Of a DNA stretch of 32,180 nucleotides, positions 1,147 to 29,204 are shown piece after piece. Source of the stretch: an uncultured Eubacteriales bacterium (GTDB lineage: Bacteria; Bacillota; Clostridia; Oscillospirales; Acutalibacteraceae); the NCBI GenBank assembly GCA_900319255.1, contig ONNU01000158.1:1-32180 (forward strand). The letters run 5' to 3'. The stretch's first letter is position 1. Every line of letters starts with the position of its first letter. The notes under the pieces were generated by a model. The model ran no database searches. It had not been told where the DNA came from and saw nothing but the letters and a program-made list of their open reading frames with translations. The position numbers and the translations under genes were made by a program.

Positions 1147-1159
1147 ACCATGATAAAAT

Positions 1160-1262
1160 ATTAAATTTTTGTAACAATTCTATATTAGAGATAAATCAAG
1201 TGTTATTTGTAACGCTTTTGTACGCTTTGTGATGTATAATATAACATAATGCATAAAAAAAT
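1160..1262 (+). promoter_or_regulatory. Conserved operon-1 promoter/operator block (copy 1 of 2)
   Basis: Near-identical to 14609-14710. Contains the palindromic box TTGTAACAA (1169-1177). Direct repeats TTGTAAC (1207-1213) and TTGTACG (1218-1224) are 11 bp apart. Perfect TATAAT at 1235-1240. There is no TTGACA-like hexamer at a 16-18 nt spacing. Confidence 0.7.
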
Positions 1263-1375
1263 CTGATTTATTCCCGCATAATCAGGAATGATGAGCATTC
1301 TGACATTCTGCCGTGAGCCTGCGTGGAATGTTGGTGATATATCAGAATAAAAATTTCAGAAAAGAGGTATTTGTT

Positions 1376-1672
1376 ATGACAACAGAAGTAAAAAAAGCAA
1401 ACGGGGCTTACACGATCAAGATAAGCGGAGGTATTGATACCCTTACTGCGCCGGAGCTGGAGCAGACCTTCAAGGAAATCGAGCCGCAGGCAGATAAAGT
1501 CATTTTCGATATGAAAGAGGTCGATTATATTTCATCAGCAGGAATAAGAGTTCTTGTCTATGTACACAGAGCAATGTCATCAAAGGACGGGCTTGTGCTG
1601 CGGGGATTGAATAAAAACGTCAGCACGATCATCAGCCTGACCGGATTTGACAAGGTGCTGACTATCGAGTGA
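1376..1672 (+). CDS. STAS-domain protein (anti-sigma-factor antagonist, SpoIIAA/RsbV-like), paralog 1
   Basis: 98 aa. The ORF-track start (GTG 1313) is trimmed to ATG 1376, which sits 8 nt after AAAGAGG and matches the N terminus of the paralog at 14864. Carries the STAS signature DYISSAGIRVLV, including the Ser that is phosphorylated in SpoIIAA-type proteins, and the C-terminal LTGFDKVL. Confidence 0.9.
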   Translation: MTTEVKKANGAYTIKISGGIDTLTAPELEQTFKEIEPQADKVIFDMKEVDYISSAGIRVLVYVHRAMSSKDGLVLRGLNKNVSTIISLTGFDKVLTIE

Positions 1673-1741
1673 AATATATAAAAAGATTAAGCCGGCAGTT
1701 CATATCAATAACCTGAATTATTCAACCACAGAGGGTTTCAT

Positions 1742-3712
1742 ATGAGAAAATCAATATTTTTTAAGCTTGCCCTGATCCTTATTCCGGTCGTTCTTGTCTG
1801 TGAGCTTGTGCAGCTTTATATTTCATACCGCACGATCTATGACTCAAATCTGAAGACCGTATCAAAGCTGACCGAAAGTACATCATTAACAGTATCGGAG
1901 ATGTTCAGATATTTTGATGAAGACAGCGAAAACGACCAGTATGAATACGGTCTGGAGTTAAGCAGGATGTGCGAGACATGGGGAGTAACATATATTTACG
2001 CCTTAGATGTCGATATAGATAAAAGATCGGAAAAATATCTTGCTATCGGCTTTGGTGAAGATGCGGCGGAGATAGTAAAAAAATCACGCTATGCGGGAGT
2101 TGTGGTGCAGGGAACGGTCAGTGATGCTCAGATACAGGCATACAGGAACAAAGAGAATAGCTTTATCGTTCATGAGAAAACAGAGCTTGATGACACGATA
2201 ACCTGTTACAGCATTTCAAAAGATAAATATGATTATACCAATTATAAGATCGTAAAACGCGATAAGCCGATATTGATAGGCGCAGAGGTATCCTTTTCGG
2301 CGGTCATGAAAGAATCCCGTCAAAGGTTTTTCTCAACAGCTACATATGACCTGATATTTACATTTATGCTTACCCTTGCGATCTTCATTGTGTTTTATCT
2401 GAGAGTCAACGGACCAGTCAGGAGGATAAGCAGCCGCATGAAGAATTTTGTTTCTGACCGTGATAAGGGAGTAGAAAAGCTGAAGGTCAGGGGAAATGAC
2501 GAACTGGCAGAGATGTCCCGTTCATTCAATCTGATGACCGAGGAGATAAACTCATATATCACGAGCATCGACAGCCTTAATAAAGAAAAGCATACTCAGG
2601 AAGCAGAGCTTGACATTGCCCGGAATATCCAGACAGGACTGCTCAAGCCCGGAAGCTATGAAAACGGTTCAGTCAGCATCAATGCTTGTATGCACGCGGC
2701 GAAGAATGTGGGCGGCGATCTGTACGACTATCAGGTATTCGACGACGGCAGGGTATTTATCTGTGTAGCAGACGTATCCGGAAAGGGAATATCAGCGGCA
2801 TTGTTCATGTCAAGGGCGATCACCCTGCTTCATCAGTATGCGCTGCATGATTATTCACCCTCAAGAATGCTTAGAGAATATAATAATACCCTTGCAGAGC
2901 AGAACCCGAACGGTATGTTCATCACGACCTTTGCCGCGGTGTATGATCCGAAAACTCACCAGCTGACATATTCCAATGCGGGACATAATCATCCGTATGT
3001 TATCGCAGATAAGCTTATTGAGCTTGACGGCGCACTGGGCGTTGCAGCCGGAATATTTGAGGGCATGGAATATGAGCAGGAAACGATCACTCTTCACCCG
3101 GGGGATGTTGTATTCCTGTATACGGACGGAGTGAACGAAGCGGAAAACAGCAACGGAGAAATGTACGGCACAGAAGCGCTGGAAAACGAGCTGAGAAAGT
3201 ATATCGGCGCAGCGAAAGGCAATATCTCCGATGAGGTTTTAAGCACGGTCAGGGAGTTTTCAGGTCATGCCGATCAGAGCGATGATATCACCATCCTTAC
3301 GCTGAAGCTTGAACAGGCATCCCTGCATGATGAGATCACCGTAAAAAACCGGGCGGAGAATCTGAAAATTGTAATTGAAAAGATCAACGCTCTGGATATC
3401 AATGAGGAAACAAAAGCACAGCTTCTGCTGATAGCAGAGGAATTGTTTGTCAACATATGTTCCTATGCGTACAAGGGAAAGGACGGAGATATCACCTTTG
3501 TACTGGATATCGGAAACGATCAGGCATCTATGATATTCACAGATGAAGGCGAGCCTTTTGATCCCACCGCTGATCTGATAGATATTGAAGAATATGACCA
3601 CGAGAACAGTATAGGCGGACTTGGACGTTTTCTTGCATTTGAATTGGCAGACGAATATTCATATGCTTATGAAAACGGCAAAAACACGCTGAAAATCATC
3701 AAAAAAATATAA
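1742..3712 (+). CDS. Membrane sensor PP2C (SpoIIE/RsbU-type) serine phosphatase fused to an RsbW/SpoIIAB-like kinase domain
   Basis: 656 aa. Two hydrophobic helices (about aa 5-27 and 197-220) bracket a loop of about 170 aa. A HAMP-like linker follows (NDELAEMSRSFNLMTEEIN). PP2C motifs are ARNIQTGLL, GGDLYDY, VADVSGKG, YTDGVNEA and SDDITILTLK. The C-terminal HATPase_c_2-like part reads AEELFVNICSYAYKG, FTDEGEPFDP and IGGLGRFLAFEL. Confidence 0.9.
   Translation: MRKSIFFKLALILIPVVLVCELVQLYISYRTIYDSNLKTVSKLTESTSLTVSEMFRYFDEDSENDQYEYGLELSRMCETWGVTYIYALDVDIDKRSEKYLAIGFGEDAAEIVKKSRYAGVVVQGTVSDAQIQAYRNKENSFIVHEKTELDDTITCYSISKDKYDYTNYKIVKRDKPILIGAEVSFSAVMKESRQRFFSTATYDLIFTFMLTLAIFIVFYLRVNGPVRRISSRMKNFVSDRDKGVEKLKVRGNDELAEMSRSFNLMTEEINSYITSIDSLNKEKHTQEAELDIARNIQTGLLKPGSYENGSVSINACMHAAKNVGGDLYDYQVFDDGRVFICVADVSGKGISAALFMSRAITLLHQYALHDYSPSRMLREYNNTLAEQNPNGMFITTFAAVYDPKTHQLTYSNAGHNHPYVIADKLIELDGALGVAAGIFEGMEYEQETITLHPGDVVFLYTDGVNEAENSNGEMYGTEALENELRKYIGAAKGNISDEVLSTVREFSGHADQSDDITILTLKLEQASLHDEITVKNRAENLKIVIEKINALDINEETKAQLLLIAEELFVNICSYAYKGKDGDITFVLDIGNDQASMIFTDEGEPFDPTADLIDIEEYDHENSIGGLGRFLAFELADEYSYAYENGKNTLKIIKKI
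3332..3709 (+). other. RsbW/SpoIIAB-like ATPase (anti-sigma kinase) domain within the phosphatase ORF
   Basis: N-box-like E-x-x-x-N-x-x-x-Y-A-Y, G1-like DEG, and a Gly-rich lid GGLG are all present. Boundaries are approximate. Confidence 0.75.
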
Positions 3713-3723
3713 GGAGAGGTACT

Positions 3724-6700
3724 ATGAGCAAACTAACCGGAAAGCTGAAAACAGTCTTTGAGGATTATTGCGATAAAACAGCCGTAACCGAGAGCTTTTC
3801 AGGCAGAAGCATCACCTACAGAGAGCTTGATATTCTCAGCGGAAAAATTGCTGCAAAGCTTAAAGCTGACGGGATCGGAAAAAACGATATCGTTCCGATC
3901 CTTCTTCCGAGAAGCTTTGAATATATCGCTGCCGAAATAGGCGCAATAAAAGCGGGCTGTGCATATGCGCCCCTGCTTGACGAATACCCTGCCGAAAGAA
4001 TAGAGTATATCTGCAGCGACTGCGGCGCAAAGCTTGTGATAGACGAGAAATATTTAAGCTTATCAGCAGAGCTTGACCCGCTGACGGAATACGGTGATAA
4101 CGCAGAAAATGACAAAGCCCTGCTGATATACACCTCCGGCTCCACAGGCAACCCGAAGGGTGTTATCCATACGCATAATTCATTTTACGAGGGTGTCAGA
4201 AGGAATATCCTGAATAACGGAATGAGCAAAAGCGACAGGACGCTTGGCATTATCAACTTCAGCTTTGCTTTGTCGGTAGACGAGGTATATGATACGATCT
4301 TCTCCGGCGCAGAGCTTTTTATGCTTGACAATGAAGAAAGAAAGGATATCCGCTTTGTAAAAAGCGCAATCATAGACAATCATGTCACAGCCCTGTATAT
4401 CAATCCGAATATGCTCAAACGTCTCGATCTGCACGGTTCATCTCTGAGGGTCGCGCAGACGGTAGGCGAGCGTTTGTCGGATTTTTATTCAGACGAATAC
4501 AAGATAATAAATGTTTACGGCGCATCAGAAACATTATGTGCGCTGGCATTTGAACTTGATAAAGCATATGACAATACCCCCGTGGGCAAAGCGGTCGACA
4601 GCTTCCGCGCATATATCATTGATGAAAACGGAAACGAGGCTGCGCCCGGCGCGGAGGGTGAGATATGCGTAGCAGGCGCATTGTCCGACGGTTATCTGAA
4701 TCTGGATGAACAGACAGCGGCTGCGTTTTCAAAAAATCCCTTCTCAGATGATGAAGGCTTCAGGACTATTTATCACACCAATGATATAGGCAAAATGCTG
4801 CCGGACGGCAATATCATCTATGTCAACCGCAAGGACTGGATGGTCAAGGTCAACGGTCAGCGTGTAGAGACCGGGGAGATCGAGGTGCGTATCGCTGCAG
4901 ATGTAGAAGCAGTCGAAACAGCTGTGGTCAAGGCCTTTGAAAATGAATACGGCATGACCTATCTTGCCGCATATTATCAGGTCAGAAAGGGAATGTCGGT
5001 AACTTCTGAGGAAATAGAAGCAGTTCTACGCAAAAAGCTGCCTGATTATATGATACCCCGATTCTTTACGGAGATGGATAAGATCCCCCTGAATGCAAAC
5101 GGAAAGGTTGACCGCAAGTCTATCCTTCCGCCTCAGGCAGCATCCTTCAAGGAGGAATATGCAGCTCCCGAAAACGAAACAGAAAAAATACTGTGTACAG
5201 CTTTTGAAAAGATCCTGCGCTGCGGTCAGGTGGGTATAAATGATGATTTCTTTGCCCTTGGCGGCGATTCTCTGCTTGCAATGAATCTGCAGCTGGACTG
5301 CGGACTGCCGGGACTTTCCACAGAGATGATCTTTGCCGGAAAAACCCCCCGGAGGATAGCAGAAAAGCTTCTGTCCTCTGCGCCCGCTGCGGCCTTTGCA
5401 GCTGAAAAGCTCAGCGAATATCCGTTGAATCCATTTGAGCGCGGAATGTATATTGAGCAGAAGCTTACACCGGGATCAACTATGTATAACCTTATCGGCT
5501 TCTACGAGGTAAGCGGCGCATCTGCTGAAAGCATCAGAGCTGCGCTGGAGGAAATTTTCCGCTCCCATGAAGCATTTCATTCTGTATACCGTGAAAAGGA
5601 CGGAACGATACTTCGCGTACTGGTGGATGAGATCCCTGATATCACGATTGAAAAAACAGATGATATCCGTGAGGGCTATGAAGCTGCAAAGGCGCTGAGC
5701 AAGCCCTATGATCTTTCAGCAGGCATTCCTGCAAGAGCCGTTATCTATACTGACGGACAGAGCTGTCTTGTCGCTTTGTTATATCATCACATCATGTTTG
5801 ACGGCGGAAGCGACGGTATTTTTGCGCGGGAGCTTCTTTCAAGGCTCAGCGGCGGAACTCTCATCACAGATAATTACGACCTCAGCGCAGCATCTCAGGA
5901 GGATAAAGAGGCGGCGTATGATCAGGGCTTTGAGAAATACCGTGAGATGTATTCCGACGGCGTACCTGTTACCGAGCTGCCGCTCAAAAAATCACGCCCG
6001 ATGTACCATCCTCATTCTGATACAAACAGGCAATTCATCATTGACGGCGACTCCCTGCAGAACCTCAGACAAGCCGCAAAAGAAAAGAAAACCACCATAT
6101 TCAATATTCTTCTTGCTTCTCTTGCAGCAACAACGGCAAAATACACTGCATCAGAGGATGTTGTTATCGGTGTGCCGGTAAATGAAAGAGACAGTCTTAC
6201 ACAGAATACCATCGGAATGTTTGTCAATACAGCGCCCCTGCGCATAAGACCCGTTCACGACAGATCAGCAGATGAATATCTGATGGAAGTCAGCGATACG
6301 GTCTCGTCCTTTATCAAAGAAAACCACTGCCCCTATGACCGCCTTGTTGCAGAGCTTGTCAAAGAGCGCAGCGACAGCCGCAATCCATTGTTTGATGTGG
6401 GCATCAACTATATTCCCATGCGCAAAGAGTATGAAAACGGCGGTATCTCTATCAGGACATCATATATCCTCCAGTCCTCCGGCAAGGATATCAATTTTGT
6501 CATGCAGGCAGAGGAAAGCAGGATCACCTGTTATGCACAGTATTCCTCCGAATTGTTTGATGATGATATAATCAGTAATTTCATAGAGCAGTTTATTTTT
6601 ACCGCTGAGAATCTTTGCTCAGGCGCAGGAACTGTACAGGAGGCTGCAAAGCTTCCCCTGATACAGAAGAAAGCGCTGGAGAGCTTCTCTACATCTTCGC

Positions 6701-9700
6701 TTGCATATGTTCCTGTAAAGCTGCTGCATAAGATGTTTGAAGCTGCGGCAGATAAATATCCGGAGAAGACCTCCCTTATCGCATGTGATCGTTCTCTTAC
6801 CCTTGCGGAGCTTGAAAGCGAAGCTAACAGAACTGCAAATGCGCTGATCTCCAGGGGTTTCAAAAAGGGAGAATGCGCAGTCATCATGCTCAGCCGCACC
6901 TCACGCTTTTTTGCAGCGCTGTTCGGTGTTCTGAAAGCGGGAGGAGCGTTCATTCCCACAGACCCGGCATATCCTGCGGAGCGTATTCACAGCGTACTTG
7001 ATGACAGCGAGGCGCGCTTTGTTATCACAGACGAGCCGAATGAAGAGTATGATAACTGTGTTACCATAGACGAGCTTCTTTCCTGCGCAGATGATACAAG
7101 ACCGGAAATCGAGGTAAGCCCTGATGATCTTGCATATATGATCTACACCTCCGGCTCCACCGGAAAGCCAAAGGGCGTAATGCTGCGCCACATCGGCATA
7201 TGCAGCTATCTTACCCCGAATAAAGCAAATCTCCATATGCAGTATCTTTACGATCATATCAGCACCTATCTTTCCATAACAACGGTCGCATTTGATATGT
7301 CATTCAAGGAGCACTGTGCCACCCTGTGCAACGGCAAAACGCTGGTATTTGCTTCTGATGAAGAAATGAACAACCCCAAGCTTCTTGCGGAGCTTATGGA
7401 TAAATACAAGGTCGACTGCATCAACGCTACTCCGTCAAGACTTCAGCAGTATCTGTTTGTTGAAGCCTTCCGCAGATCAATTGCAAACTGTAAATGCGTG
7501 ATATCCGGCGGCGAGGGCTATCCGCTGGCGCTGCTTAAAAATTTAAAGGAGTATGCGCCGGATGCCTGCATTTTCAATACCTATGGACCGACTGAGATCA
7601 CCGTTTCCTCAAATGTTGCTGATCTGACCCATGCAGAACAGATCTCCGTCGGCAGACCTCTGCTCAACTATATTGAATATATCGTGGATAAAAACGGCAG
7701 TCTTGCGCCCTTCGGCGTTACAGGCGAGCTTTATATCGGCGGTATCGGTGTAGCAAAGGGCTATAAAAATCTGCCGGATAAAACCGCAGCCTCATTTGTT
7801 GATTACCGCGGTCAGCGCATTTACCGTTCCGGCGATTTTGCAAAATGGGACAAGGACGGCAATGTGCTGATACTTGGCAGAATGGACAACCAGGTCAAGC
7901 TGCGCGGACTGCGTATTGAGCTTGGCGAGATAGAAAGCGTAATTGAAAGCTATGACGGAATAAAGGAAGTAGCCGTTGCTATAAAAACCATAGCAGGAAC
8001 GGAGCACATTGCGGCGTATTACACAGCGGATTCTGAAACAGACCCGAACGCCGTCAGAGAATATGCCGCATCAAAGCTGACACATTATATGGTTCCCACA
8101 GCTTATCTGCAGCTTAAAGAAATGCCGTATACGCTCAACGGCAAAAAGGATATGAAAAACCTGCCCGAGCCGCAGCTTCTCAAAAATTCCGCTCCGGATA
8201 GCAGCTCACGCAAGCTGACTAAATTTGAAAAAGAGCTTTGCGGGATCGCCGGAAAAGCGATCGGCTCAGAAGTAACGGACGTTTCTTCAAGCCTTGTAAG
8301 TCTCGGACTTACCTCGCTGAATGCAATTGCATTTACGACCTTTGTCGAGGAAAAATACGGCTGTGATATCCCGGTAGGAAAGATAATGCACGGCATGAGT
8401 ATTATTGAAGCAGAGGATCTGATCTATGATCACCTGATGCAGGGCGGCGCAGGAAAAGCAGAAGCAGACCTGCAGGCTGATATCCAGGAAACCTATCCGC
8501 TTTCAAATAATCAGCTCGGAGTTTATTACGAGGTCATGAAAAAGCCCGAGGAGCTTATGTATAATATGCCCCTTTGTTATTGCTTTGAAAGCGTAGATGC
8601 ATACAGACTGAAGGCTGCGCTTCTGAAGGCACTCGCAGCTCATTCCTATATGAACACGCACATCGAGATCAGAAGCGGCAACCTTGTTCAGGTAAGAAAT
8701 GATAATGCTGATCCCGTGATCCCGATAACCGAAATGACATATGAAGAGCTTGAAAAACGTAAAAATGAATTTGTACGCCCGTTTAATCTTCATTCGGATC
8801 TGCTCTACCGTTTTGAGATCATAAAGTCAGACAGCAGGACATATCTGCTTTCCGATATTCACCATATAATCTTTGATGGTCTTTCACGGGGAGTATTTAT
8901 GGATGCAGTTTCAAAGGCTTATGCAGGCGAAGAGCCGGGAAAAGAAAAGCTGAGCTATTTTGAATATGCATTGAATGAGAATAAGGAAAAGGATTCCGAA
9001 AGCTATCGTGAGTCAGAAAAATACTTCTCCGATATGCTCAGTAAATTTGAATCTGTCAGTGAGATCCCTGCTGATAAGAAGGGACGCTCAGAGGACGGAC
9101 GCATTGGTGTTGTGGAAGTGCCGATGGAGCGTGACGCAATGGAGCAGTTCTGCCGGAAGAATTCAGTAACGCCGTCGTCATTGTTCCTTGCTGCGACCTT
9201 CTACACAGTTTCACGCTTTACCAACAGCAGGAATGTCTATATCTCCACAATTTCCGGAGGCAGAAATGACAGCAAGGTGCGCAGGACTATCGGAATGTTC
9301 GTACATACCCTGCCGCTTCATATGAGCTTTGAAAAGGATATTACAGCAGGAGAGCTTATCGAAAGCTCAAATCAGGCAATGCTTCTCGATGTGGAGCATG
9401 AAAACTATCCGTTTATGCAGCTTGCTGATAAATTCGGCTATTCCACGGAGATTATGTATGAATGCCAGCTCGGTGTAGGCGGGGCAAAGCGTACTGTAGG
9501 CGATGCTGAATATTCCACAGAGTTCATGAAGCTTGAAACGCCGAAATTCAAGGTGACCATCGCCATAGAGGACAGAGCAGACGGAATTGCTGTTTCCATA
9601 CGCTATAACGATGCGGTATATACAAGAGAATATATGCTCACTCTCGCTGATTCTATAAAAAATGCAGCTCAGAGAATGATCACAGATGCGTCAGCATCCG

Positions 9701-12700
9701 TAAGGGAAATATCTCTTCTCAGCGACAGCGAACAGCAGGAGATGGAATCCATCAGCTGCACAGCCTGCGAAGAGCCTGCATCAGAGCTGCTTCATAAGCT
9801 TTTTGAAAAGAGCGCTGCTGAAAATCCCGATAATACGGCATTGATCGCTTGTGACGCTTCGCTGACCTATACACAGCTGAATCAGAATGCCAACCGTATC
9901 GCTCATATGCTGATAAATGCCGGTGTAAAGCCAAGGGACAGCGTAGTATTGCTGCTTCCCCGCAGAAGCTATTATTTTGCTTCGCTGTTCGGCGTGCTGA
10001 AAGCGGGCGCAGCATTTATCCCCTGCGATCCCGAATATCCTGCTGACAGGATCAGGCATATTATCGGTGACTCAGACGCAGCATTCATAATCACGACCGA
10101 AGATCATATGTCTGATTATCCTGCTGAAAAGGCATTGCTGATAGACGATCTTCTTCTCGGTAACGAAACGGATAATCCCGATGTTGAGATCAGCGGCAGT
10201 GACCTTGCATATATGATCTACACCTCAGGCTCTACAGGCAAGCCCAAGGGCGTAATGCTCACACATAAGGGCATATGCAGCTTCTGCACGACACACAGCG
10301 CAAATATCCTGTATCAGCTTGTAGAAAAGGAAATCAATACAATGCTGGCAGTGACCACTGTATCCTTTGACCTTTCATTAAAGGATACAGTAGGCATACT
10401 GTGCAGCGGCAGGACGGTCGTTTTCGCTTCTGAAACAGAAATGAATGACCCGCGTGCGCTTAAGCTGCTTATCGAAAGCAATAACGCCGATGCAATGAAC
10501 GCTACCCCGTCACGCTATCTGCAATATATGGAATACGAGCCTTTCAGAAAGGCTCTCAGCCGCTGCAAGCTGGTAATGGCAGGCGGCGAAGCATTCCCTG
10601 CAGCTCTGATGGAGCAGCTGAAGGAGCTTGGCATCCCGAATATCATCAATACCTACGGACCCACTGAAACCACTATTTCAAGCAATATGGCATTCCTGCA
10701 AAACGCAGATCATGTATCCGTGGGAAGACCGCTGCTCAATTACCATGAGTATATAGTGGATATTGACGGAAACCCTGTTCCAAAGGGAGTGACAGGCGAG
10801 CTTCTTATCGGAGGCTATGGCGTTGCGAGAGGCTATAAGAATCTGGATGAGCAGACTGCTGCAAGATTCATCGACTACCGCGGCGAGCGTGTCTATAAAT
10901 CAGGCGATTATGCAAAATGGGACAGCGATGGCAATGTTATCATACTTGGCAGAATGGATAACCAGGTCAAGCTGCGGGGACTGCGTATCGAGCTTGGCGA
11001 GATCGAGGGTCTTATCGACGAGCAGCCTCATATCAAGAAAGCTGTGGTTGTCATTAAAAAGCTTGCGGGCGTTGAAAACCTCTGCGCTTATTATACAGCC
11101 GATTGTGAGATCAAGCCCGAGGAGCTTAAACAGGAGCTTGCAAAATCCCTGACCCATTATATGGTCCCGACAGCTTATCTGCAGCTTGATACCATGCCGG
11201 TGACACCAAACGGCAAGACCGATCTGAAAGCGCTTCCCGATCCGGTAGCAGTTACCTCAGGCGAGTATTCTGCGCCGAAAAATGAAACAGAGGAATATTT
11301 CTGCGGGCTGTTCAAAAAGGTATTGAAGCTTGAAAAGGTAGGAGCAACCGACAGCTTCTTTGAGATCGGCGGCACATCGCTGCTTGTCACCTCTGTTGTC
11401 ATTGAAGCAGCTGAGAACGGCTATGAGATAACCTATGGCGATATTTTCCGCAAGACCACTCCCCGGGAGCTTGCAGAGATGTTCACATCAGAGGACGCAG
11501 ACGAAGGTGTTCGTATCGTTGATTTTGATAATTACGATTATTCAAAAATCAATGAAATGCTTACTCATAACAATATAAAAACTCTTTGCGAGGGCGAACA
11601 GCGACCCATCGGAAATATCATGCTCACGGGAGCTACCGGCTTTATGGGAGCACATGTTCTTGCTCATTATCTTAGCAGCGAGACCGGCAGAGCTTATTGT
11701 CTTATCAGAAAAGGAAAATTCGATTCACCCAAAGAGCGTCTGAAAAACATTTTCTTCTATTATTTTGAAAGCGAGCTGGAGAATGAATTTGACAGCCGCG
11801 TTACGGTATTGGACGGCGATGTTACCAATTACGATCAGTTCGTTCCCTTTGAAACGCTGCCCATCGACACCGTTTTCAACTGCGCTGCCAATGTCAAGCA
11901 TTTCTCCAACGGAACGGATATTGAGGATGTCAATGTAGGCGGCGCGCAGAACTGCGTAAAGCTTTGTAAAAAGATCGGCGCAAGGCTTATACATTTCTCC
12001 ACCACCAGCGTATGCGGCGCAAGCGTGGATAATCAGCCTCCCGCAGGCACTGTGCTTGACGAACAGTCACTTTATATCGGACAAAGACTGGATACCAAGT
12101 ATACCAATTCAAAGCTTCTTTCCGAGCGCGTAGTTCTTGAAGCAGTGGCAGATAATAAGCTTGATGCAAAGGTCATCCGTGTGGGTACTCTTTCCGCGAG
12201 AGAAAAAGACGGTGAATTCCAGATCAATTTCCTTACCAATAACTTTATGGGACGCCTGCGTTCATTTGAGATCATCGGCTGTTTCCCGTATTCCATGATA
12301 AATTCACCCGTATGCCTGAGTCCTATTGACGAAAGCGCAAAGGCATTTTTCGCGCTTGCAAAAACGCCGAAGGAATGTTGTCTGTTCAACTGCACCAATA
12401 ACCATTCTGTACCTCTTGCCGATATAATAACCCAGATGCAGAGATCAGGAATGAACGTAAAGCTCACAGATGATAATGTATTTGCAGAAGCCTTGTCCGC
12501 TGCCGAAAAGGATCCGCAGAAGGCTGCCATTCTTTCAAGTATGCTTGCCTATAAGAATATGGCGCACGGAAAAATGCTTGTTCCGATCCTTCCTGTGAAT
12601 AACTATACAACACAGGCGCTGGCAAAAATGGGATTCCTGTGGAAGCCCAGCAGCGAGAAATATATGCTTGATTTCATTGCTGCGCTTTCATCCCTTGACT

Positions 12701-12729
12701 TCTTTGACAATACTAATCTGAGCAGGTAA
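3724..12729 (+). CDS. Trimodular NRPS with terminal reductase: A-T-C-A-T-C-A-T-R
   Basis: 3001 aa; RBS AAGGAGAGG at 3711-3719. A3 motifs: LIYTSGSTGNPKG (about 4120-4160) and AYMIYTSGSTGKPKG (about 7132-7180 and 10204-10255). A10 is NGK-x-D. Carrier Ser codons: 5269-5271 (GGDS), 8314-8316 (GLTS), 11377-11379 (GGTS). HHxxxDG at 5785-5805 and 8860-8880. Reductase motifs GATGFMG (11629-11649) and YTNSK (12100-12114). Confidence 0.97.
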   Translation: MSKLTGKLKTVFEDYCDKTAVTESFSGRSITYRELDILSGKIAAKLKADGIGKNDIVPILLPRSFEYIAAEIGAIKAGCAYAPLLDEYPAERIEYICSDCGAKLVIDEKYLSLSAELDPLTEYGDNAENDKALLIYTSGSTGNPKGVIHTHNSFYEGVRRNILNNGMSKSDRTLGIINFSFALSVDEVYDTIFSGAELFMLDNEERKDIRFVKSAIIDNHVTALYINPNMLKRLDLHGSSLRVAQTVGERLSDFYSDEYKIINVYGASETLCALAFELDKAYDNTPVGKAVDSFRAYIIDENGNEAAPGAEGEICVAGALSDGYLNLDEQTAAAFSKNPFSDDEGFRTIYHTNDIGKMLPDGNIIYVNRKDWMVKVNGQRVETGEIEVRIAADVEAVETAVVKAFENEYGMTYLAAYYQVRKGMSVTSEEIEAVLRKKLPDYMIPRFFTEMDKIPLNANGKVDRKSILPPQAASFKEEYAAPENETEKILCTAFEKILRCGQVGINDDFFALGGDSLLAMNLQLDCGLPGLSTEMIFAGKTPRRIAEKLLSSAPAAAFAAEKLSEYPLNPFERGMYIEQKLTPGSTMYNLIGFYEVSGASAESIRAALEEIFRSHEAFHSVYREKDGTILRVLVDEIPDITIEKTDDIREGYEAAKALSKPYDLSAGIPARAVIYTDGQSCLVALLYHHIMFDGGSDGIFARELLSRLSGGTLITDNYDLSAASQEDKEAAYDQGFEKYREMYSDGVPVTELPLKKSRPMYHPHSDTNRQFIIDGDSLQNLRQAAKEKKTTIFNILLASLAATTAKYTASEDVVIGVPVNERDSLTQNTIGMFVNTAPLRIRPVHDRSADEYLMEVSDTVSSFIKENHCPYDRLVAELVKERSDSRNPLFDVGINYIPMRKEYENGGISIRTSYILQSSGKDINFVMQAEESRITCYAQYSSELFDDDIISNFIEQFIFTAENLCSGAGTVQEAAKLPLIQKKALESFSTSSLAYVPVKLLHKMFEAAADKYPEKTSLIACDRSLTLAELESEANRTANALISRGFKKGECAVIMLSRTSRFFAALFGVLKAGGAFIPTDPAYPAERIHSVLDDSEARFVITDEPNEEYDNCVTIDELLSCADDTRPEIEVSPDDLAYMIYTSGSTGKPKGVMLRHIGICSYLTPNKANLHMQYLYDHISTYLSITTVAFDMSFKEHCATLCNGKTLVFASDEEMNNPKLLAELMDKYKVDCINATPSRLQQYLFVEAFRRSIANCKCVISGGEGYPLALLKNLKEYAPDACIFNTYGPTEITVSSNVADLTHAEQISVGRPLLNYIEYIVDKNGSLAPFGVTGELYIGGIGVAKGYKNLPDKTAASFVDYRGQRIYRSGDFAKWDKDGNVLILGRMDNQVKLRGLRIELGEIESVIESYDGIKEVAVAIKTIAGTEHIAAYYTADSETDPNAVREYAASKLTHYMVPTAYLQLKEMPYTLNGKKDMKNLPEPQLLKNSAPDSSSRKLTKFEKELCGIAGKAIGSEVTDVSSSLVSLGLTSLNAIAFTTFVEEKYGCDIPVGKIMHGMSIIEAEDLIYDHLMQGGAGKAEADLQADIQETYPLSNNQLGVYYEVMKKPEELMYNMPLCYCFESVDAYRLKAALLKALAAHSYMNTHIEIRSGNLVQVRNDNADPVIPITEMTYEELEKRKNEFVRPFNLHSDLLYRFEIIKSDSRTYLLSDIHHIIFDGLSRGVFMDAVSKAYAGEEPGKEKLSYFEYALNENKEKDSESYRESEKYFSDMLSKFESVSEIPADKKGRSEDGRIGVVEVPMERDAMEQFCRKNSVTPSSLFLAATFYTVSRFTNSRNVYISTISGGRNDSKVRRTIGMFVHTLPLHMSFEKDITAGELIESSNQAMLLDVEHENYPFMQLADKFGYSTEIMYECQLGVGGAKRTVGDAEYSTEFMKLETPKFKVTIAIEDRADGIAVSIRYNDAVYTREYMLTLADSIKNAAQRMITDASASVREISLLSDSEQQEMESISCTACEEPASELLHKLFEKSAAENPDNTALIACDASLTYTQLNQNANRIAHMLINAGVKPRDSVVLLLPRRSYYFASLFGVLKAGAAFIPCDPEYPADRIRHIIGDSDAAFIITTEDHMSDYPAEKALLIDDLLLGNETDNPDVEISGSDLAYMIYTSGSTGKPKGVMLTHKGICSFCTTHSANILYQLVEKEINTMLAVTTVSFDLSLKDTVGILCSGRTVVFASETEMNDPRALKLLIESNNADAMNATPSRYLQYMEYEPFRKALSRCKLVMAGGEAFPAALMEQLKELGIPNIINTYGPTETTISSNMAFLQNADHVSVGRPLLNYHEYIVDIDGNPVPKGVTGELLIGGYGVARGYKNLDEQTAARFIDYRGERVYKSGDYAKWDSDGNVIILGRMDNQVKLRGLRIELGEIEGLIDEQPHIKKAVVVIKKLAGVENLCAYYTADCEIKPEELKQELAKSLTHYMVPTAYLQLDTMPVTPNGKTDLKALPDPVAVTSGEYSAPKNETEEYFCGLFKKVLKLEKVGATDSFFEIGGTSLLVTSVVIEAAENGYEITYGDIFRKTTPRELAEMFTSEDADEGVRIVDFDNYDYSKINEMLTHNNIKTLCEGEQRPIGNIMLTGATGFMGAHVLAHYLSSETGRAYCLIRKGKFDSPKERLKNIFFYYFESELENEFDSRVTVLDGDVTNYDQFVPFETLPIDTVFNCAANVKHFSNGTDIEDVNVGGAQNCVKLCKKIGARLIHFSTTSVCGASVDNQPPAGTVLDEQSLYIGQRLDTKYTNSKLLSERVVLEAVADNKLDAKVIRVGTLSAREKDGEFQINFLTNNFMGRLRSFEIIGCFPYSMINSPVCLSPIDESAKAFFALAKTPKECCLFNCTNNHSVPLADIITQMQRSGMNVKLTDDNVFAEALSAAEKDPQKAAILSSMLAYKNMAHGKMLVPILPVNNYTTQALAKMGFLWKPSSEKYMLDFIAALSSLDFFDNTNLSR
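11605..12726 (+). other. Terminal SDR-type thioester reductase (R) domain of NRPS 1
   Basis: Rossmann motif LTGATGFMGAHVL, then HFSTTSV, then YTNSK (Y-x-x-x-K). No thioesterase motif follows the last carrier domain. Confidence 0.85.
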
Positions 12730-12734
12730 AAGCT

Positions 12735-14465: not shown

Positions 14466-14519
14466 AAGCAACCCCGGCAAATAATAATAGCCGTATAAAA
14501 TAGTTTATATCTATATGCT

Positions 14520-14577: not shown

Positions 14578-14608
14578 ATCGCCGCAGACGTTTTCAGAGT
14601 AATGAATT

Positions 14609-14710
14609 ATTAAATTTTTGTAACAATTCTTTATTAGATAAAAATAGCCTGTTTTTGTTACGCTTTTGTACGCTTTTTAATGTATAATATATATAATGCA
14701 TAAAAAATCA
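14609..14710 (+). promoter_or_regulatory. Conserved operon-2 promoter/operator block (copy 2 of 2)
   Basis: TTGTAACAA (14618-14626), TTGTTAC (14655-14661), TTGTACG (14666-14672) and TATAAT (14683-14688). The 11-bp phasing and the 17-bp distance from the proximal box to the -10 are the same as in copy 1. Confidence 0.7.
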
Positions 14711-14863
14711 GGATAGTCAGATATTCTGATTAGGATATTTTATTATTCTGTGAATATGATGTATCATTTTCACTTTCCACTGATGTGAGCTTTGTTTTGT
14801 ACGGCGGACGTGGGAATGATACTTCAGCAATAACCAGAAAAAACTAAGAAAGAGGTATTTGCT

Positions 14864-15160
14864 ATGACAACAGATGTAAAAAATGAAAATGAGGTTTACA
14901 CAATTATGATCAGCGGCAGGATAGATACTCTTACCGCGCCTGAGCTTGAGCAGAAGTTCAAGGAGATCCAGCCGGATGCAAAAAAGGTCATATTTGATAT
15001 GAAGGATGTGGAATACATTTCATCGGCTGGAATGAGAGTGCTTGTTTATGTCCACAGGGAAATGTCATCGAAGGACGGACTTGTTCTTCGCGGACTTACC
15101 AGAAACGTCAGCACCATCATCGGACTTACCGGATTTGACAAGGTACTGAATATTGAGTGA
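14864..15160 (+). CDS. STAS-domain protein (anti-sigma-factor antagonist-like), paralog 2
   Basis: 98 aa with RBS AAGAAAGAGG upstream. By my count 79 of 98 residues are identical to the STAS protein at 1376-1672. The EYISSAGMRVLV motif is retained. Confidence 0.9.
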   Translation: MTTDVKNENEVYTIMISGRIDTLTAPELEQKFKEIQPDAKKVIFDMKDVEYISSAGMRVLVYVHREMSSKDGLVLRGLTRNVSTIIGLTGFDKVLNIE

Positions 15161-15166
15161 TATTAA

Positions 15167-15179
15167 ATTACGAAGTTGA
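15167..15179 (+). repeat. 13-bp direct repeat ATTACGAAGTTGA, copy a
   Basis: Exact match to 15353-15365. Begins 6 nt after the STAS-2 stop codon. Confidence 0.85.
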
Positions 15180-15352
15180 TAGACGATTGTAAATTGGCAA
15201 ATGGTCGTCTGCCCGCCGCAGGAAGTGCCCTTGGGGTGCGGGCGGACACCTCGCCAAAAGCCTGAAAATCCTTGGAAAACGGAGAAAATTGATTATTCTA
15301 AATACAAATAAATCCGCATAAACACAGGCTTTTCTGTATTTTACAATCAGCT

Positions 15353-15365
15353 ATTACGAAGTTGA
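15353..15365 (+). repeat. 13-bp direct repeat ATTACGAAGTTGA, copy b
   Basis: Exact match to 15167-15179. Lies immediately 5' of the NRPS-2 RBS AAAGGAG. Confidence 0.85.
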
Positions 15366-15382
15366 GTAAAGGAGAATGCGTA

Positions 15383-18300
15383 ATGTACCAGAGTATCATC
15401 CGGAAAATTCTGGATAATGTCAAAAACGCCCCCGACACCATCGCGATCATTGACCAGGGCGAGGGCAATCAGTTTACCTACAGTGAATTTGAAGCATATG
15501 CTCGCAGGGTAGCAGGAAAGCTCAGCCGTCTGGGAGTGAGCCGCAATGACTTTGTAACGATCGAGCTTCCGAGAAACAAGGAATATATCGCATCAATGGC
15601 AGCTGTATGGATGACGGGAGCAGCATTTGTGCCTCTTTCACCGGCATACCCTGCCGAGAGAGTGCAGTTTATCCGCAGCGACTGCAGCGCAAAGGCTGTG
15701 ATCGACAGCGCCTTTTTAGAAAATATAGGAAACGAAGCTCCCATTGAAGATATTGCTTCAGTCGAACCCTCCGATCATTCCCTTATGATATACACCTCAG
15801 GCTCGACCGGAAAACCCAAGGGTGTACTTCATTCCCATCTCAGCATCAGCGACTCTGTATTCCGCTTTCTGGAATATGCAGACAGCCCCGCAGGCTTCCG
15901 TGCGGCGGTAGGCGCGCCGTTTACATTTGTTGCATCGGTGCAGGGCGTATTTGAGCCGCTTTGTGCCATTAACACCGCGGTGCTTGTTCCGTATGAGGCA
16001 ATGCGCGACCCTGTTCTGCTGGCAGATTTTATTGAGCAGTACCAGGTGAACAGATGTTTTATCAGCCCCAAAATGCTCAGGGTATTCAAAGCAAAGGGCA
16101 ATTCCCTTAAAATCGTATCCACCGGCAGCGAGCGTGTTTCAAATACATACAGCGCAGATTATACGATACAGGTAGCCTACGGTCAGACAGAATCCGCAGG
16201 CGCTGTTATGATGTTCAGAATTGATAAGAAATATGATAATACTCCCATCGGCAAGCCCATCGGAAATGTAAAGGCTTATCTTCTGGATGAAAATAATCAG
16301 CCTGCCGATGAAGGCGAGATGTGCCTTGCAGGCAATTTTGCAACAGGATATCTGAATCTGCCCGAGCTGACAGAAAAGACCTTTATCCCGAACCCCTTCT
16401 TTGAGCAGGACGGATTTCCGAAGCTTCTCAAAACAGGCGATATCTGCAAAAAAGGCGAAAACGGCAATTATATCTATCTGAACCGCAAGGACTGGATGGT
16501 CAAGATCAACGGTCAGCGCGTAGAACCGGGAGAGATCGAAGCTGTACTTAAAAACACTGACGGAATAGCCGATGCTGCGATCAAGGATTTTAAAAATACC
16601 TTCGGACAGGTTTATCTTGTCGCATATTATACAGAAAAGGAAGCAGTTGACGTTGAAGCGCTGAAAGCAAAGGTCTCCGCGCAGCTGCCGCCCTATATGA
16701 TACCCTCGTTCTTTGTCAGACTTGATAAGCTGCCGGTTAACCAGAACGGCAAGCTGGACAGAAACGCTCTGATCCCTCCCGAAGCAGGCGAATTCAAAAA
16801 TGAATACGCTGCTCCTGAAACAGAGCTGCAAAAGGCTCTTTGCTCAGCATTTGAAAAGATACTCGAAGCGGAGAACGTAGGTATTGACGATGATTTCTAT
16901 GCTCTCGGCGGAGATTCCATAAAGAGCGCGATGATTGCCCGTGAATGCGAGGCTTATCATCTTTCCACAGCTGTTATCCTTGCGGGCAAAACTCCCCGCG
17001 GTATCGAGCATATGATAAAGCGCTCAGCGCAGAAGGCATCTGTTGTCAGAAAGGAAAACAAGCCCAAGGTCTATCCGCTGACTTCCTCTGAACGGGGAAT
17101 GTATCTGGAGCAGAAGCTTTATCCTGATTCTGTTTCCTTCAACCTGAATATCGGCGTGATGATAAGCGGTGCAGACGCCGAAGCTGTCAGAACAACACTG
17201 GAGAGCATTTTCTCCTCACATGAAGCCTTCCGCTCCACCTACGGCGAGGAAAACGGTCTTCCTGTCCGCATCGTTACTGACAGGCTGCCCCAGATCATTG
17301 AAAAGACAGCCGCAGCAAGGGAAGATGTAATTAAGATAATTGACAGCTATGCCGAACCGTTTGATCTTTGCGCTGATATCCCGGTGCGCCCCACGCTTTA
17401 TACTATCTCAGACGGCGAGGTCATTCTCCATATGGCTATCCATCATATTGCTTTTGACGGCGGCTCTGCAAAGCCCTTTATCACAGAGCTGATTGACGGC
17501 TTGAACGGAAAAATGCCGGAGGCTGCTACGATAGATCTGTCGGATCTTTATGATTGTCAGACGGAGGAGCAGCATGAAAACGGACTTGCTTATTATCGAA
17601 ATGTCTTTGCCGATGGAGTTCCCGTGAACGAAATGCCGACTAAAGCCCGCCGCCCGAAGGTACATCCGGTTTCCGACCGGGAGATCGCCTTTGATCTCGA
17701 CACTGCTAAGGCAAGGCTGATGGATAAAGCTGCGCGCAAATTCGGCGTAACAAGATTTGAGCTGATCTTTGCGGCTATTTCTATGGCTCTCGGAAAGTAC
17801 ACCTCTTCCGAGGACGTTGTGCTGGGTATTCCCACCGATATGCGTCCCAACGGAGCGGAGGGTGTTATTGGAATGTTTGTCAATACAGCTCCCGTGCGTG
17901 TAAAACCGGTAAGAAGTATGGAGCTGAACGATTATTTTGCCGCTGTAAGCGAAGCTGTGCGCGGAGCTACATATGGAGCATCCCTGCCCTTTGAGGATAT
18001 CGTGGCGGAATTTGTCAAAACGCGCGACGAAAGCCGCAGCCCCATATTTGATGTCAGCGTAAACTATCTGCAAAAGCCGGCTGTTTACCGCAGCAGCGGT
18101 CTGATTGTGGATATGTATTCTCCATTGCAGAACATGACCCGTGATATAGCCATTGTCATAAGCAACAGCGAGGATGGTATGCGCTTCGTTGCAAGGTATT
18201 CCGGAGAGCTGTTTGAGGATGATATGATCGAAAGCTTCCTCGGACAGGTAAGGCATACTGTTGATATCTTTACAGGCAGCGAAGCTAAAACCGTCCGGGA

Positions 18301-27451: not shown

Positions 27452-27461
27452 GGAGGACATT

Positions 27462-29204
27462 ATGGAAAGAAACGGAAGATTAATAAAACATAAATATAAC
27501 GAATACCTTCTTTCTACGCTTGCCATGAGCGGATGTGCTTCAATCGCGACTATCGTTGACAGGATCATGGTGGGAAATCTGCTGACAGCCAACGATCTTA
27601 ACGCAACGAATCTTATCGGTCCGCTTATCTATGTCCTCAATATGATCTTTGCGCTGTTTATTTACGGCGGAAACACTCTCGCAGTGACCTTCAAGGGAAA
27701 ACGAGATCAGAAGACTGCAAATAAATGCTTTACCATTTCTATCTTAGGCGGTACTTGTTTCATGGCGCTATTTGCGATAGCGGGTCTGATTTTTCAGGTC
27801 CCGCTGTCGAACCTGCTGTGCATAGGAAAAGAGGAATTGTATAAGCCGGTATCAGAATATCTTGTTCCCGTGCTGTTTCTTGGAATGCTTATGATACTGC
27901 TCAACGGCACTTCGGCTTTTATCAGGGTCGACGGCTTGAGAAAGCTTGCCATAATCATTCCCATTGTATCAAATGCGCTGAATCTGACCCTTGATTATGT
28001 CTTTATGGGCATCTGCAAATTTGGTATAGCCGGCGCTGGCTGGGCGACAAATCTGGGCTTTGGGGCTTCGCTTTTCCTGCTGATACCGTATTTCCGTTCC
28101 GAAAAACGCACAGTATTCTTTACAAAGATAGGCTTCAAGGATATCAAGCTTATGCTGAATTCCTTCCATCTGGGTCTGGCAACGGCGCTTATGTATCTTT
28201 GCATGTTTCTCAAGACATTTTTCCTCAACAGGATCATCGTTATTACCCTTGGCGCTGTGGGAGGACAGATACTCGTTGTCTGCTCAGCAGTCATGAGCGT
28301 CGGCAATATATTCTTTACCGGAACAGCTCAGACCATGCTGCCGATAAACGGAGCATTGTACGGAGCGCAGGATTATAAGGGCATCAGGCATCTTTTCAAA
28401 ACCTCAATGCTTGTGATGGAAATAATTTGCGTTGTAATAATGGCAATATTTATGATATTCCCCCTGCAAACAGCCGCAATTTTCAATGTCACAAGCCCAG
28501 AGGCGCAGGAACTTCTGCCAAGCTCGATCTTTATGTTCAGCCTTTGTATCCCGCCCACCGGTATGCTTTTTATCATGCGCTCACATTATCAGTCCACCGG
28601 TCATCGCAATGCTGCAACGGTGCTGACTGTGCTGGAGGGAACGGTATTCTTTATCCCCATACTCTGGGCATTATCACGGATCAATCCTGATCTTATGTGG
28701 CTGTCTCATGTAATATCGGTGGTATTGTCTATTATTGTAATGGGTCTTGCAATGTGCATCAGCGCAATGCGGAAAGGAAGATCTGCATTTTTGCTGCTGC
28801 CGAAGCAGGATGACGGAAGCTCCTTCGATTTCAGCATAGAAAACAAGATCGAAGCAGCAGTAGAAGCATCTGGGAAGATCACTGAATATTGCCTGCAAAA
28901 CGGCATAAGCGAAGAGGTTGCAAGTATTATCGGCGTTTCGGTAGAGGAGCTGTGTGTTAATACAGCTAAATATGCAGTAAGCTCCAAATCGGATATGATA
29001 GATATTTTCCTGAAGATCACACCGGAAACAGTAATTCTGAAGGTGCGGGATAATGGAATGATCTTTAATCCCACAGAATATATTGACAATTCAGGCGAAT
29101 CCATCACCGGTCTGAAGATGGTCAGGAGCATCAGTTCAAAGGTGGAATATAACCGTGTAATCGGCTTCAATAATACCATCGTTACCGTCAACCGCACGCT
29201 CTGA
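27462..29204 (+). CDS. MATE-family efflux transporter fused to a C-terminal RsbW/SpoIIAB-like domain, paralog 2
   Basis: The ORF-track start (27321) lies inside the NRPS gene. It is trimmed to ATG 27462, 5 nt after AAGGAGG (27450-27456) and 10 nt after the NRPS stop. About 580 aa. MATE-like N terminus (IATIVDRIMVGNLLTANDLNATNL). The tail reads SVEELCVNTAKYAV and VRDNGMIFNPTEYIDNSG. Confidence 0.88.
   Translation: MERNGRLIKHKYNEYLLSTLAMSGCASIATIVDRIMVGNLLTANDLNATNLIGPLIYVLNMIFALFIYGGNTLAVTFKGKRDQKTANKCFTISILGGTCFMALFAIAGLIFQVPLSNLLCIGKEELYKPVSEYLVPVLFLGMLMILLNGTSAFIRVDGLRKLAIIIPIVSNALNLTLDYVFMGICKFGIAGAGWATNLGFGASLFLLIPYFRSEKRTVFFTKIGFKDIKLMLNSFHLGLATALMYLCMFLKTFFLNRIIVITLGAVGGQILVVCSAVMSVGNIFFTGTAQTMLPINGALYGAQDYKGIRHLFKTSMLVMEIICVVIMAIFMIFPLQTAAIFNVTSPEAQELLPSSIFMFSLCIPPTGMLFIMRSHYQSTGHRNAATVLTVLEGTVFFIPILWALSRINPDLMWLSHVISVVLSIIVMGLAMCISAMRKGRSAFLLLPKQDDGSSFDFSIENKIEAAVEASGKITEYCLQNGISEEVASIIGVSVEELCVNTAKYAVSSKSDMIDIFLKITPETVILKVRDNGMIFNPTEYIDNSGESITGLKMVRSISSKVEYNRVIGFNNTIVTVNRTL
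28822..29201 (+). other. RsbW/SpoIIAB-like (HATPase_c_2-type) tail domain of exporter 2
   Basis: N-box-like EELCVNTAKYA and G1-like DNG. The lid region has a single Gly (SITGLKMVRSI). Boundaries are approximate. Confidence 0.7.

Follow-up and report, generated by a model that had tools for sequence, protein, structure and literature searches.

The 32,180 nucleotides (nt) analyzed here, in the following called the window, are positions 1 to 32,180 of contig ONNU01000158.1 (assembly GCA_900319255.1) of an uncultured Eubacteriales bacterium of the Acutalibacteraceae, a Ruminococcus-like organism from the rumen. The window encodes two exporters of the MATE family, MatE1 and MatE2, whose C-termini each carry a HATPase_c_2 domain resembling the anti-sigma factors RsbW and SpoIIAB. 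Both lie in one block with two non-ribosomal peptide synthetase (NRPS) genes and the other parts of a partner switch, namely two STAS proteins and a PP2C phosphatase. We conclude that a conserved variant of partner switching, in which an anti-sigma-like domain is built into a MATE exporter, is real and apparently undescribed; that this switch regulates export is plausible. The block is predicted to represent two copies of a conserved natural-product export module with a dedicated partner switch.

A previous reading of the window from its letters alone (the sequence-only reading) had proposed tightly coupled operons with two STAS genes, one PP2C phosphatase, three RsbW/SpoIIAB-like domains and two NRPS genes. 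Listing of the open reading frames (ORFs) together with Pfam scans revealed a single co-directional block in which every part scores well above chance and in which each of these genes and domains lies where it had been placed (Table 1). The STAS, SpoIIE/PP2C, HATPase_c_2 and MatE assignments were all supported by Pfam, and the junctions 3712/3724, 12729/12735 and 27451/27462 indeed measure 11, 5 and 10 nt. All three HATPase_c_2 domains reside on membrane proteins, i.e. the two exporters and the sensor, in agreement with the proposal that the anti-sigma-like domains are tethered. All long ORFs of the window are covered by annotated genes.

An RsbW-like domain within the exporter

MatE1 consists of a MATE exporter with 12 transmembrane (TM) segments (12735-14042), a variable linker and a cytoplasmic tail of RsbW/SpoIIAB fold (14091-14462). 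The Pfam scans detected two MatE stretches in each pump (MatE E 9e-22 for MatE1, 3e-12 for MatE2) and the HATPase_c_2 domain with 31.0 bits at amino acids (aa) 461-566 of MatE1 and with 39.2 bits (E 8.5e-10) in MatE2, at a Pfam cut-off of 27.4 bits. In the AlphaFold model of full-length MatE1 (pLDDT 85.6) a 12-TM MATE domain is followed by a cytoplasmic alpha/beta domain at residues 453-576, and the tail alone was modeled with a pLDDT of 85.3. The TM part of the pump model matches PfMATE (6fhz, TMt 0.84), DinF, NorM and ClbM. The 18 best PDB matches of the tail model are chains of RsbW, SpoIIAB and UsfX with target-normalized TM-scores of 0.71-0.87, and histidine-kinase catalytic domains rank below them. 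Searching the PDB with a single pump-tail sequence gave a weak match to VraS only. A profile of 14 tails found RsbW (E 8e-3) as well as the catalytic domain of VraS (E 1e-3); in the alignment with RsbW, the Glu and Asn of the N box and the G1 motif D-x-G-x-x-F coincide.

The motifs EEL..N, RDxG..F.P, GL and Y.R..GFN.T are invariant or nearly so across the tails, with the N box (EEL..N) and the G1 box (RDxG..F.P) being invariant. The G2 box GGLG is reduced to TGL in the pump tails and kept only in the PP2C-linked domain, and the ATP lid of the tails is about 10 residues shorter than that of RsbW. Pump tail and sensor kinase domain are 34% identical across the N and G1 boxes and divergent in the lid/G2 region. 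Among 37 diverse members the tail, with a mean pairwise identity of 52.7%, is conserved to the same degree as the TM domain (52.1%), and the linker reaches 33%. Similarly, MatE1 and MatE2 are 52% identical in the tail and 45% in the TM domain as well as overall. As judged from these alignments, the tail is under purifying selection.

Altogether 249 homologues of the pump were found in a collection of 5.8 billion proteins. Of these, 120 were listed, nearly all with PF01554 as well as PF13581, and the named sources among the matches listed are Ruminococcus sp. With the tail as query, 713 relatives were obtained at E<=1e-3 from 1.84 billion cluster representatives, and the full-length ones almost all comprise 570-600 aa with the tail at about 450-585. 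This length and position mark them as MatE fusions, and thus the tail family is essentially always fused to MatE. One homologue bears the IMG label 'Na+-driven multidrug efflux pump/anti-sigma regulatory factor'. Two MatE proteins (P0168, 786 aa; P0189, 754 aa) contain two tandem HATPase_c_2 stretches; in a further one (P0198, 937 aa) MatE-HATPase_c_2 is followed by a transglycosylase domain, which may be a gene-call fusion.

The third HATPase_c_2 domain belongs to the sensor, which combines PP2C and an RsbW-like kinase in one polypeptide, an arrangement present beside STAS in at least 21 loci. Its N-terminal part contains a domain of about 170 aa between two hydrophobic segments, presumably extracytoplasmic, followed by HAMP (2399-2551, E 6.6e-6), SpoIIE/PP2C (2741-3310, E 2.7e-52) and HATPase_c_2 (aa 550-654, nt 3389-3703, E 2e-14). 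The translation includes GGDLYD, DVSGKG, TDGVNEA and SDDITIL, which we take to be the metal-binding motifs of PP2C. The HATPase_c_2 domain matches RsbW (6m36, E 2.7e-4) in a sequence search of the PDB and holds all three kinase motifs, i.e. the N box, G1 and an intact GGLG G2 box. An exact look-up of the sensor protein returned no identical record.

The STAS proteins match antagonists of the SpoIIAA, RsbV and TM1442 type in the PDB. The second serine of their Y-x-S-S-A-G-L-R motif is aligned with the serine in MDSAGLG of TM1442, presumably the phosphorylation site of that protein, and the phosphorylatable serine is kept in 47 of 47 STAS proteins from related loci. STAS1 and STAS2 are 81% identical in pairwise comparison, whereas the identity between the two operons is 45% for the pumps and 41% for the synthetases. 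This fits the assumption that both STAS proteins have to fit the single PP2C-kinase. However, the promoter cassette and the STAS gene together are about 81% identical between the operons while the remainder reaches 41-45% at the protein level. This points to gene conversion of a cassette made up of promoter and STAS gene as an alternative source of the similarity.

Each operon is, on the basis of its domain content, predicted to encode an NRPS for a reductively released tri- or tetrapeptide, which would be an aldehyde or an alcohol. Pfam finds three AMP-binding and two Condensation domains in NRPS1 and four and three, respectively, in NRPS2, PP-binding domains in addition, and a terminal NAD_binding_4 (thioester reductase) domain in both (E 9e-33 and 1e-27). 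The NRPS2 reading frame opens at TTG 15362, and an AAGGAG ribosome-binding site precedes ATG 15383, which is likely the true start.

Related loci, sigma factor genes and promoters

In a genome scan with one genome per GTDB species 80 loci were kept, and their six-frame segments were annotated with the window's own domains. The genome-scan loci and three further loci (L009-L011) together provide 57 tailed-MatE loci outside the window, with flanks seen to +/-10 kb. The tailed loci from the scan belong to Ruminococcus, Acutalibacteraceae, Oscillospiraceae, Lachnospiraceae and Selenomonas ruminantium, and all named sources are rumen or gut. The module also occurs in the cultured, complete-genome strains Ruminococcus sp. 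JL13D9 and JE7B6. An NRPS gene lies at most 400 nt from the tailed MatE in 49 of the 57 loci, most of the others being truncated contigs. Among the 35 loci whose flanks extend 6 kb or more upstream and 5 kb or more downstream, 32 have an adjacent NRPS, 23 a STAS and 21 a PP2C gene, the latter usually fused to HATPase_c_2. When tailed and tail-less MatE loci of the same scan were compared, the tail-less ones coming mostly from other phyla, STAS genes were present in 21/32 versus 1/15 loci (p=1.5e-4) and NRPS genes in 29/32 versus 1/15 (p=3e-8). A genome survey as suggested by the sequence-only reading therefore reveals a strong association of the tailed MatE with STAS, PP2C and reductase-terminated NRPS genes.

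The typical gene orders are STAS-NRPS-MatE~tail-PP2C~kinase(-STAS) and NRPS-MatE~tail-PP2C~kinase-PGA_cap-STAS, and STAS genes often overlap or directly precede the NRPS gene (L010, L022, L024, L054, L055). Many relatives of the module have an NRPS of 1977 aa with the order A-T-C-A-T-R (A, adenylation; T, thiolation; C, condensation; R, reductase). Three loci, two from Selenomonas ruminantium (L056, L067) and L026, possess the tailed MatE, the PP2C-HATPase and the STAS gene in the absence of an NRPS, and the L056 module sits amid the housekeeping genes infB, truB and ribF. Thus, the pump is the sole non-signaling part that always accompanies the parts of the switch. In L056 and L067 the set comprises the tailed MatE, a 268-aa protein, a dCache_1-HAMP-PP2C-HATPase_c_2 protein and STAS.

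Several loci deviate from these orders or show additional features. In L009 (11825-13976), a relative with 72% identity, REC-GGDEF-EAL and Hpt proteins follow the tailed MatE and replace PP2C and STAS, a layout reminiscent of the way HptB, HsbR and HsbD are wired in Pseudomonas. In L032 (11747-14473), L033, L042, L043 and L049 the PP2C fusion after the tailed MatE is replaced by a free HATPase_c_2 protein (150-195 aa), with the STAS gene located farther downstream. A PGA_cap (CapA-like) gene lies between PP2C-kinase and STAS in L011 (11861-13048), and a gap of similar size is seen at this position in L028, L031, L036, L037, L040, L041 and others, which suggests that these loci form one large subgroup of the family. 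In L010 a PPTase-STAS-NRPS-MatE~tail-PP2C cluster is bracketed by LuxS genes (2469-2993 and 14767-15147), which hints at a link to autoinducer-2 metabolism. In L071, from a metagenome-assembled genome of the Paludibacteraceae (Bacteroidota), the parts are unfused: besides the NRPS-R and STAS genes there are a MatE gene without a tail and a separate gene for the HATPase_c_2 protein (E 8e-23). The ancestor of the fusion may have looked similar, or the set may stem from horizontal transfer.

Sigma factor genes were searched for by phmmer with FliA, RpoS, RpoD and RpoE of E. coli as queries against the six-frame segments of 83 loci and the window. As the sequence-only reading had stated, the window contains no ORF of the sigma-70 family; the best six-frame match has an E value of 2.5. 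That reading had also allowed for a dedicated sigma factor encoded just outside the window. The 10 kb downstream contain no sigma gene, and on the upstream side the contigs end before the flank is reached. Within 10 kb no sigma gene was found in 54 of the 57 tailed loci, and a co-encoded cognate sigma factor, the defining target of switches of the RsbU/RsbV/RsbW type, is lacking both in these loci and in the window. No sigma gene of groups 1-3 was detected in about 80 loci with the E. coli queries, which were used without a positive control for group 3. Extracytoplasmic function (ECF) sigma genes confirmed by Pfam are present in 3 of the 57 tailed loci, namely L032 (directly after STAS), L054 and L016. 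As they occur in these three loci only and at differing positions, they were rejected as a conserved partner. L032 is the only locus that resembles a classical kinase/STAS/sigma set. From the lack of a conserved sigma gene nearby it follows that the switch probably controls export rather than transcription.

Transcription of the two operons seems to be handled apart from the switch. Ahead of each operon lies a cassette of about 105 nt, and the two cassettes are almost identical. They contain the 11-nt direct repeats TTTGTAACGCT and TTTGTACGCTT with a TATAAT 7-8 nt 3' of them, and a third copy, TTTGTAAC, lies about 37 nt farther upstream. The 23-nt pattern formed by the two repeats is found at just two places in the window, against a chance expectation of 0. 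Neither STAS gene is preceded by a -35/-10 pair according to a generic sigma-70 scan, the -35 hexamer being absent. Both operons thus seem, from the motifs, to use a predicted housekeeping-type TATAAT promoter, and together with the repeats this would permit transcription with no obvious need for an alternative sigma factor. Direct repeats next to a TATAAT that lacks a -35 element are the layout of activator-dependent promoters bound by regulators of the OmpR/SARP type, which fits the gene for a REC/winged-helix response regulator at 293-1099 that is absent from the sequence-only reading. The 11-nt repeats are probably a binding site of this regulator, which is a candidate activator of both operons. 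It would be accessory and species-specific; a regulator of this type was not found beside the module in the other loci. A SigB-like motif, GTTT-N14-GGGAAT, is present at 14794-14817, 45 nt upstream of STAS2. It was rejected as a SigB-type promoter because such matches are at chance level (at least two in 24 of 100 shuffles) and because the -35 half is deleted upstream of STAS1.

Between STAS2 and NRPS2 lies a 200-nt spacer (15161-15385) that folds better than 200 of 200 shuffled sequences (z = -2.9). Within it there is a GC-rich hairpin (about 15205-15250), and a 13-nt sequence, ATTACGAAGTTGA, is repeated directly on its two sides (15167 and 15353). The spacer has no Rfam match, and neither has the window as a whole. 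It could be a small inserted element, a leader or an attenuator. The 10 kb 3' of the window contain panBCD, an ABC transporter and a flavoprotein and iron-sulfur subunit pair of the fumarate reductase/succinate dehydrogenase type. At the other end, positions 1-130 of the window lie within a tandem repeat (about 145 nt) that is present in two or more copies in L005 (1-270); the extra upstream sequence of L005 contains no tRNA.

Table 1. Genes and promoter cassettes of the window. A bracketed (T) denotes a T domain that was undetected in the domain search.
Feature	Position	Strand	Evidence and remarks
REC + winged-helix response regulator	293-1099	+	Pfam Response_reg E 9e-15; Trans_reg_C E 0.005, under the Pfam cut-off
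Promoter cassette, operon 1	1153-1257	+	repeats TTTGTAACGCT and TTTGTACGCTT at 1206-1228; TATAAT 1235-1240
STAS1, single-domain, 98 aa	1376-1672	+	PF01740 E 6e-15; conserved phosphorylatable serine in DYISSAG
Membrane sensor, HAMP-PP2C-HATPase_c_2	1742-3712	+	Pfam
NRPS1, three modules, A-T-C-A-(T)-C-A-T-R, terminal thioester reductase	3724-12729	+	Pfam, domain map
MatE1, MatE + C-terminal HATPase_c_2	12735-14465	+	Pfam, AlphaFold
Promoter cassette, operon 2	14602-14706	+	repeats 14654-14676; TATAAT 14683-14688
STAS2	14864-15160	+	PF01740 E 3e-14
NRPS2, four modules + R, A-T-C-A-(T)-C-A-(T)-C-A-T-R	15362/15383-27451	+	Pfam, domain map
MatE2, MatE + RsbW-like tail at about 28824-29201	27462-29204	+	Pfam
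HAD hydrolase	29462-30085	+	
GNAT acetyltransferase	30167-30577	-	
Alpha-amylase	30660-31973	-	

Known partner switches and related clusters

With the RsbU-RsbV-RsbW and SpoIIE-SpoIIAA-SpoIIAB systems of Bacillus the window shares the PP2C phosphatase, the STAS proteins with their conserved serine and the GHKL domains of RsbW/SpoIIAB fold. It differs from them in that no sigma gene is found in its operons or in the conserved neighborhood, in that its GHKL domains are fused to the MATE pump and to the phosphatase, and in the shortened lid and degenerate G2 box of the pump tails. Sigma-independent partner switches are already known, among them HsbR/HsbA of Pseudomonas and SiaABCD. A further example is SypE/SypA of Vibrio fischeri (PMC8256260). 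As in HsbR-HsbA and SypE-SypA, PP2C and an RsbW-like kinase are united in one protein in the window, and a small STAS protein is predicted to act on a target other than a sigma factor. In contrast to HsbR and SypE, the input is a two-TM sensor with HAMP (dCache_1 and HAMP in Selenomonas) instead of a REC domain, and the candidate target of STAS is a second RsbW-like domain located on a transporter. In Bordetella, the BtrU-BtrV-BtrW switch controls type III secretion and not a sigma factor (PMC8256260). Export is likewise the output proposed here, but BtrW is soluble and, unlike the pump tails, not fused to the export machine, and export system and cargo differ.

The fold search with the tail also brought up UsfX and the SiaB kinase together with its partner SiaC. 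SiaC of Pseudomonas aeruginosa acts on a diguanylate cyclase and not on a sigma factor. UsfX of Mycobacterium tuberculosis is an RsbW-like binder without kinase activity and thus provides a precedent for a tail that acts as a reader. Unlike the window tails, SiaABCD and UsfX have no link to a transporter. A secondary transporter covalently joined to one half of a STAS/anti-sigma pair is found in the SLC26/SulP anion transporters, which carry a C-terminal STAS domain (PMC8256260). In the window the polarity is reversed, since here the MATE/MOP pump carries the HATPase_c_2 domain and STAS is a separate protein of 98 aa. ClbM, a MATE exporter of an NRPS product, matches the window pump structurally but has no tail.

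The gene neighborhood as such has been described before. In Methanobrevibacter ruminantium M1, PP2C, STAS and RsbW-like genes adjoin NRPS and MatE genes, and the authors noted the serine phosphatases and the anti-sigma antagonist in this neighborhood and suggested roles in sensing, regulation and export, but gave no mechanism (Leahy et al. 2010; PMC2812497). These clusters share with the window the reductase-terminated NRPS beside MatE, serine phosphatases and an anti-sigma antagonist as well as a rumen host. As far as can be compared by description, they differ from it in that the genes are described as separate and no MatE tail is reported, and in that the host is an archaeon. The gut clostridial NRPS clusters for dipeptide aldehydes, such as that for ruminopeptin in Ruminococcus bromii (Guo et al. 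2017), also contain a reductase-terminated NRPS, whereas the window NRPSs have three and four modules. According to a published summary, A-T-C-A-T-R synthetases of gut Ruminococcus release dipeptide aldehydes that inhibit proteases (PMC12327764). The literature searched, from which two primary papers on related gut NRPS clusters are excepted, held no study of a MatE-HATPase_c_2 fusion. The statement of the sequence-only reading that it knew of no described system with this wiring has to be narrowed in view of BtrUVW, SypE/SypA, HsbR/HsbA, SiaABCD, the M. ruminantium neighborhood of 2010 and the IMG label of one homologue. Sigma-independent partner switches and the neighborhood of NRPS, MatE, phosphatase and antagonist genes are thus already known; what appears to be new is that the covalent fusion of MATE and RsbW, which seems to be undescribed, is recognized as such and interpreted.

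Proposed mechanism, alternative explanations and significance

Our favored reading, to which we give slightly less than an even chance, is that the PP2C-kinase writes and erases STAS phosphorylation and that STAS docks on the pump tails and thereby gates export. The sensor would toggle its own kinase and phosphatase activities and in this way set the phosphorylation of both STAS proteins, of which one form, by analogy the unphosphorylated one, would dock on the tails. The tails, with their invariant N and G1 boxes and their remodeled ATP lid and G2 box, would act as readers, and docking would switch the export of the peptide aldehyde on or off. We infer the direction of signal flow, the contact between STAS and tail and the effect on transport. 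A reactive peptide aldehyde, as proposed by the sequence-only reading, is by analogy to the related clusters a reasonable guess for the product of the three- and four-module NRPSs. Membrane recruitment of the synthetase, which that reading named as the other possible output, finds no specific support in these observations. The more complete version, in which an extracellular cue acting via the sensor sets STAS phosphorylation and binding of STAS to the tail opens or blocks the export of a protease-inhibiting peptide aldehyde, is put forward somewhat more tentatively still.

Several observations weigh against this reading. The nearest structures of the tail are true anti-sigma factors, some of them in complex with sigma factors, and a sigma factor may be encoded elsewhere in the genome. 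The sigma queries, all from E. coli, recovered the Pfam-confirmed ECF genes and had no positive control in group 3, the class of sigma factors bound by RsbW and SpoIIAB. The upstream flank of the window is unassembled, and all 13 contigs with the REC gene end 230-480 nt before it; the tandem repeat of about 145 nt probably breaks the assemblies and hides the upstream neighbors. Besides the phylogenetic make-up of the tail-less comparison set, it also has to be considered that STAS and PP2C were not found within 10 kb in 12 of the 35 well-flanked tailed loci. In several of these 12 loci, however, an NRPS of 9-10 kb occupies the entire flank and would hide such parts, and MatE1 itself would look switch-less, as 11 kb separate it from its STAS and PP2C genes upstream.

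The structural kinship of the tail to RsbW, SpoIIAB and UsfX, among them structures determined in the presence of sigma F, would also be expected if the pump tails were membrane-anchored anti-sigma factors that hold a sigma factor encoded elsewhere. It would be released by STAS or, with the pump as a flux sensor, by the transport cycle, and the output would be transcription of the cluster. The ECF sigma genes in L032, L054 and L016, the SigB-like motif upstream of STAS2 and the unassembled upstream flank are in line with this explanation. We nevertheless consider it unlikely, as with the E. coli queries no sigma gene was found within 10 kb in 54 of 57 loci and none of group 3 in any locus, the three ECF genes differ in position, and the SigB-like motif is at chance level and deleted upstream of STAS1. 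Moreover, both operons have the TATAAT promoter with activator repeats in common. A similar neighborhood is present in an archaeon and archaea have no sigma factors, which counts for a sigma-independent switch.

The invariant N-box Glu/Asn and G1 Asp/Gly suggest, from the alignment, that the tails have kept nucleotide binding. They might accordingly be active as serine kinases, signaling the transporter state by phosphorylating STAS when the pump is idle or loaded, with STAS acting elsewhere, for example on the activity or membrane recruitment of the NRPS or on the sensor phosphatase. The frequent overlap or direct succession of STAS and NRPS genes and the presence of three kinase-like domains and one phosphatase in the window would agree with this. 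It appears improbable, though, since tail and PP2C-linked kinase diverge precisely in the catalytic lid, which in the tail is shortened, with GGLG reduced to TGL as well, and since the module persists in Selenomonas without an NRPS. Finally, the tail could be an evolutionary relic or a structural or dimerization appendage without any signaling role, STAS and PP2C regulating something unrelated. Its Pfam scores barely exceed the cut-off, and the 12 loci with neither STAS nor PP2C nearby would be accounted for. This we regard as very improbable, because the tail matches the transporter domain in conservation and has invariant motif residues, is strongly enriched in loci with STAS and PP2C, and has been kept in both of the diverged window paralogues with a higher identity than the TM domain.

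Export is the least understood step in natural-product biosynthesis, and we know of no MATE pump that is regulated post-translationally by a dedicated signaling module. If the pump is indeed gated by STAS, partner switching would be extended from transcription to transport, and the system would be the first partner switch with the activity of a secondary transporter as its output. It would also mirror the old and unexplained link between STAS domains and the SLC26 transporters. The system is compact: a pump, a single serine and a pair of small soluble proteins or domains. The products of related clusters inhibit host and microbial proteases. A STAS-gated pump would constitute a post-translational release valve, widespread in rumen and gut Bacillota, for a natural product, and it would provide a handle on the timing of peptide aldehyde release by gut and rumen Ruminococcus.

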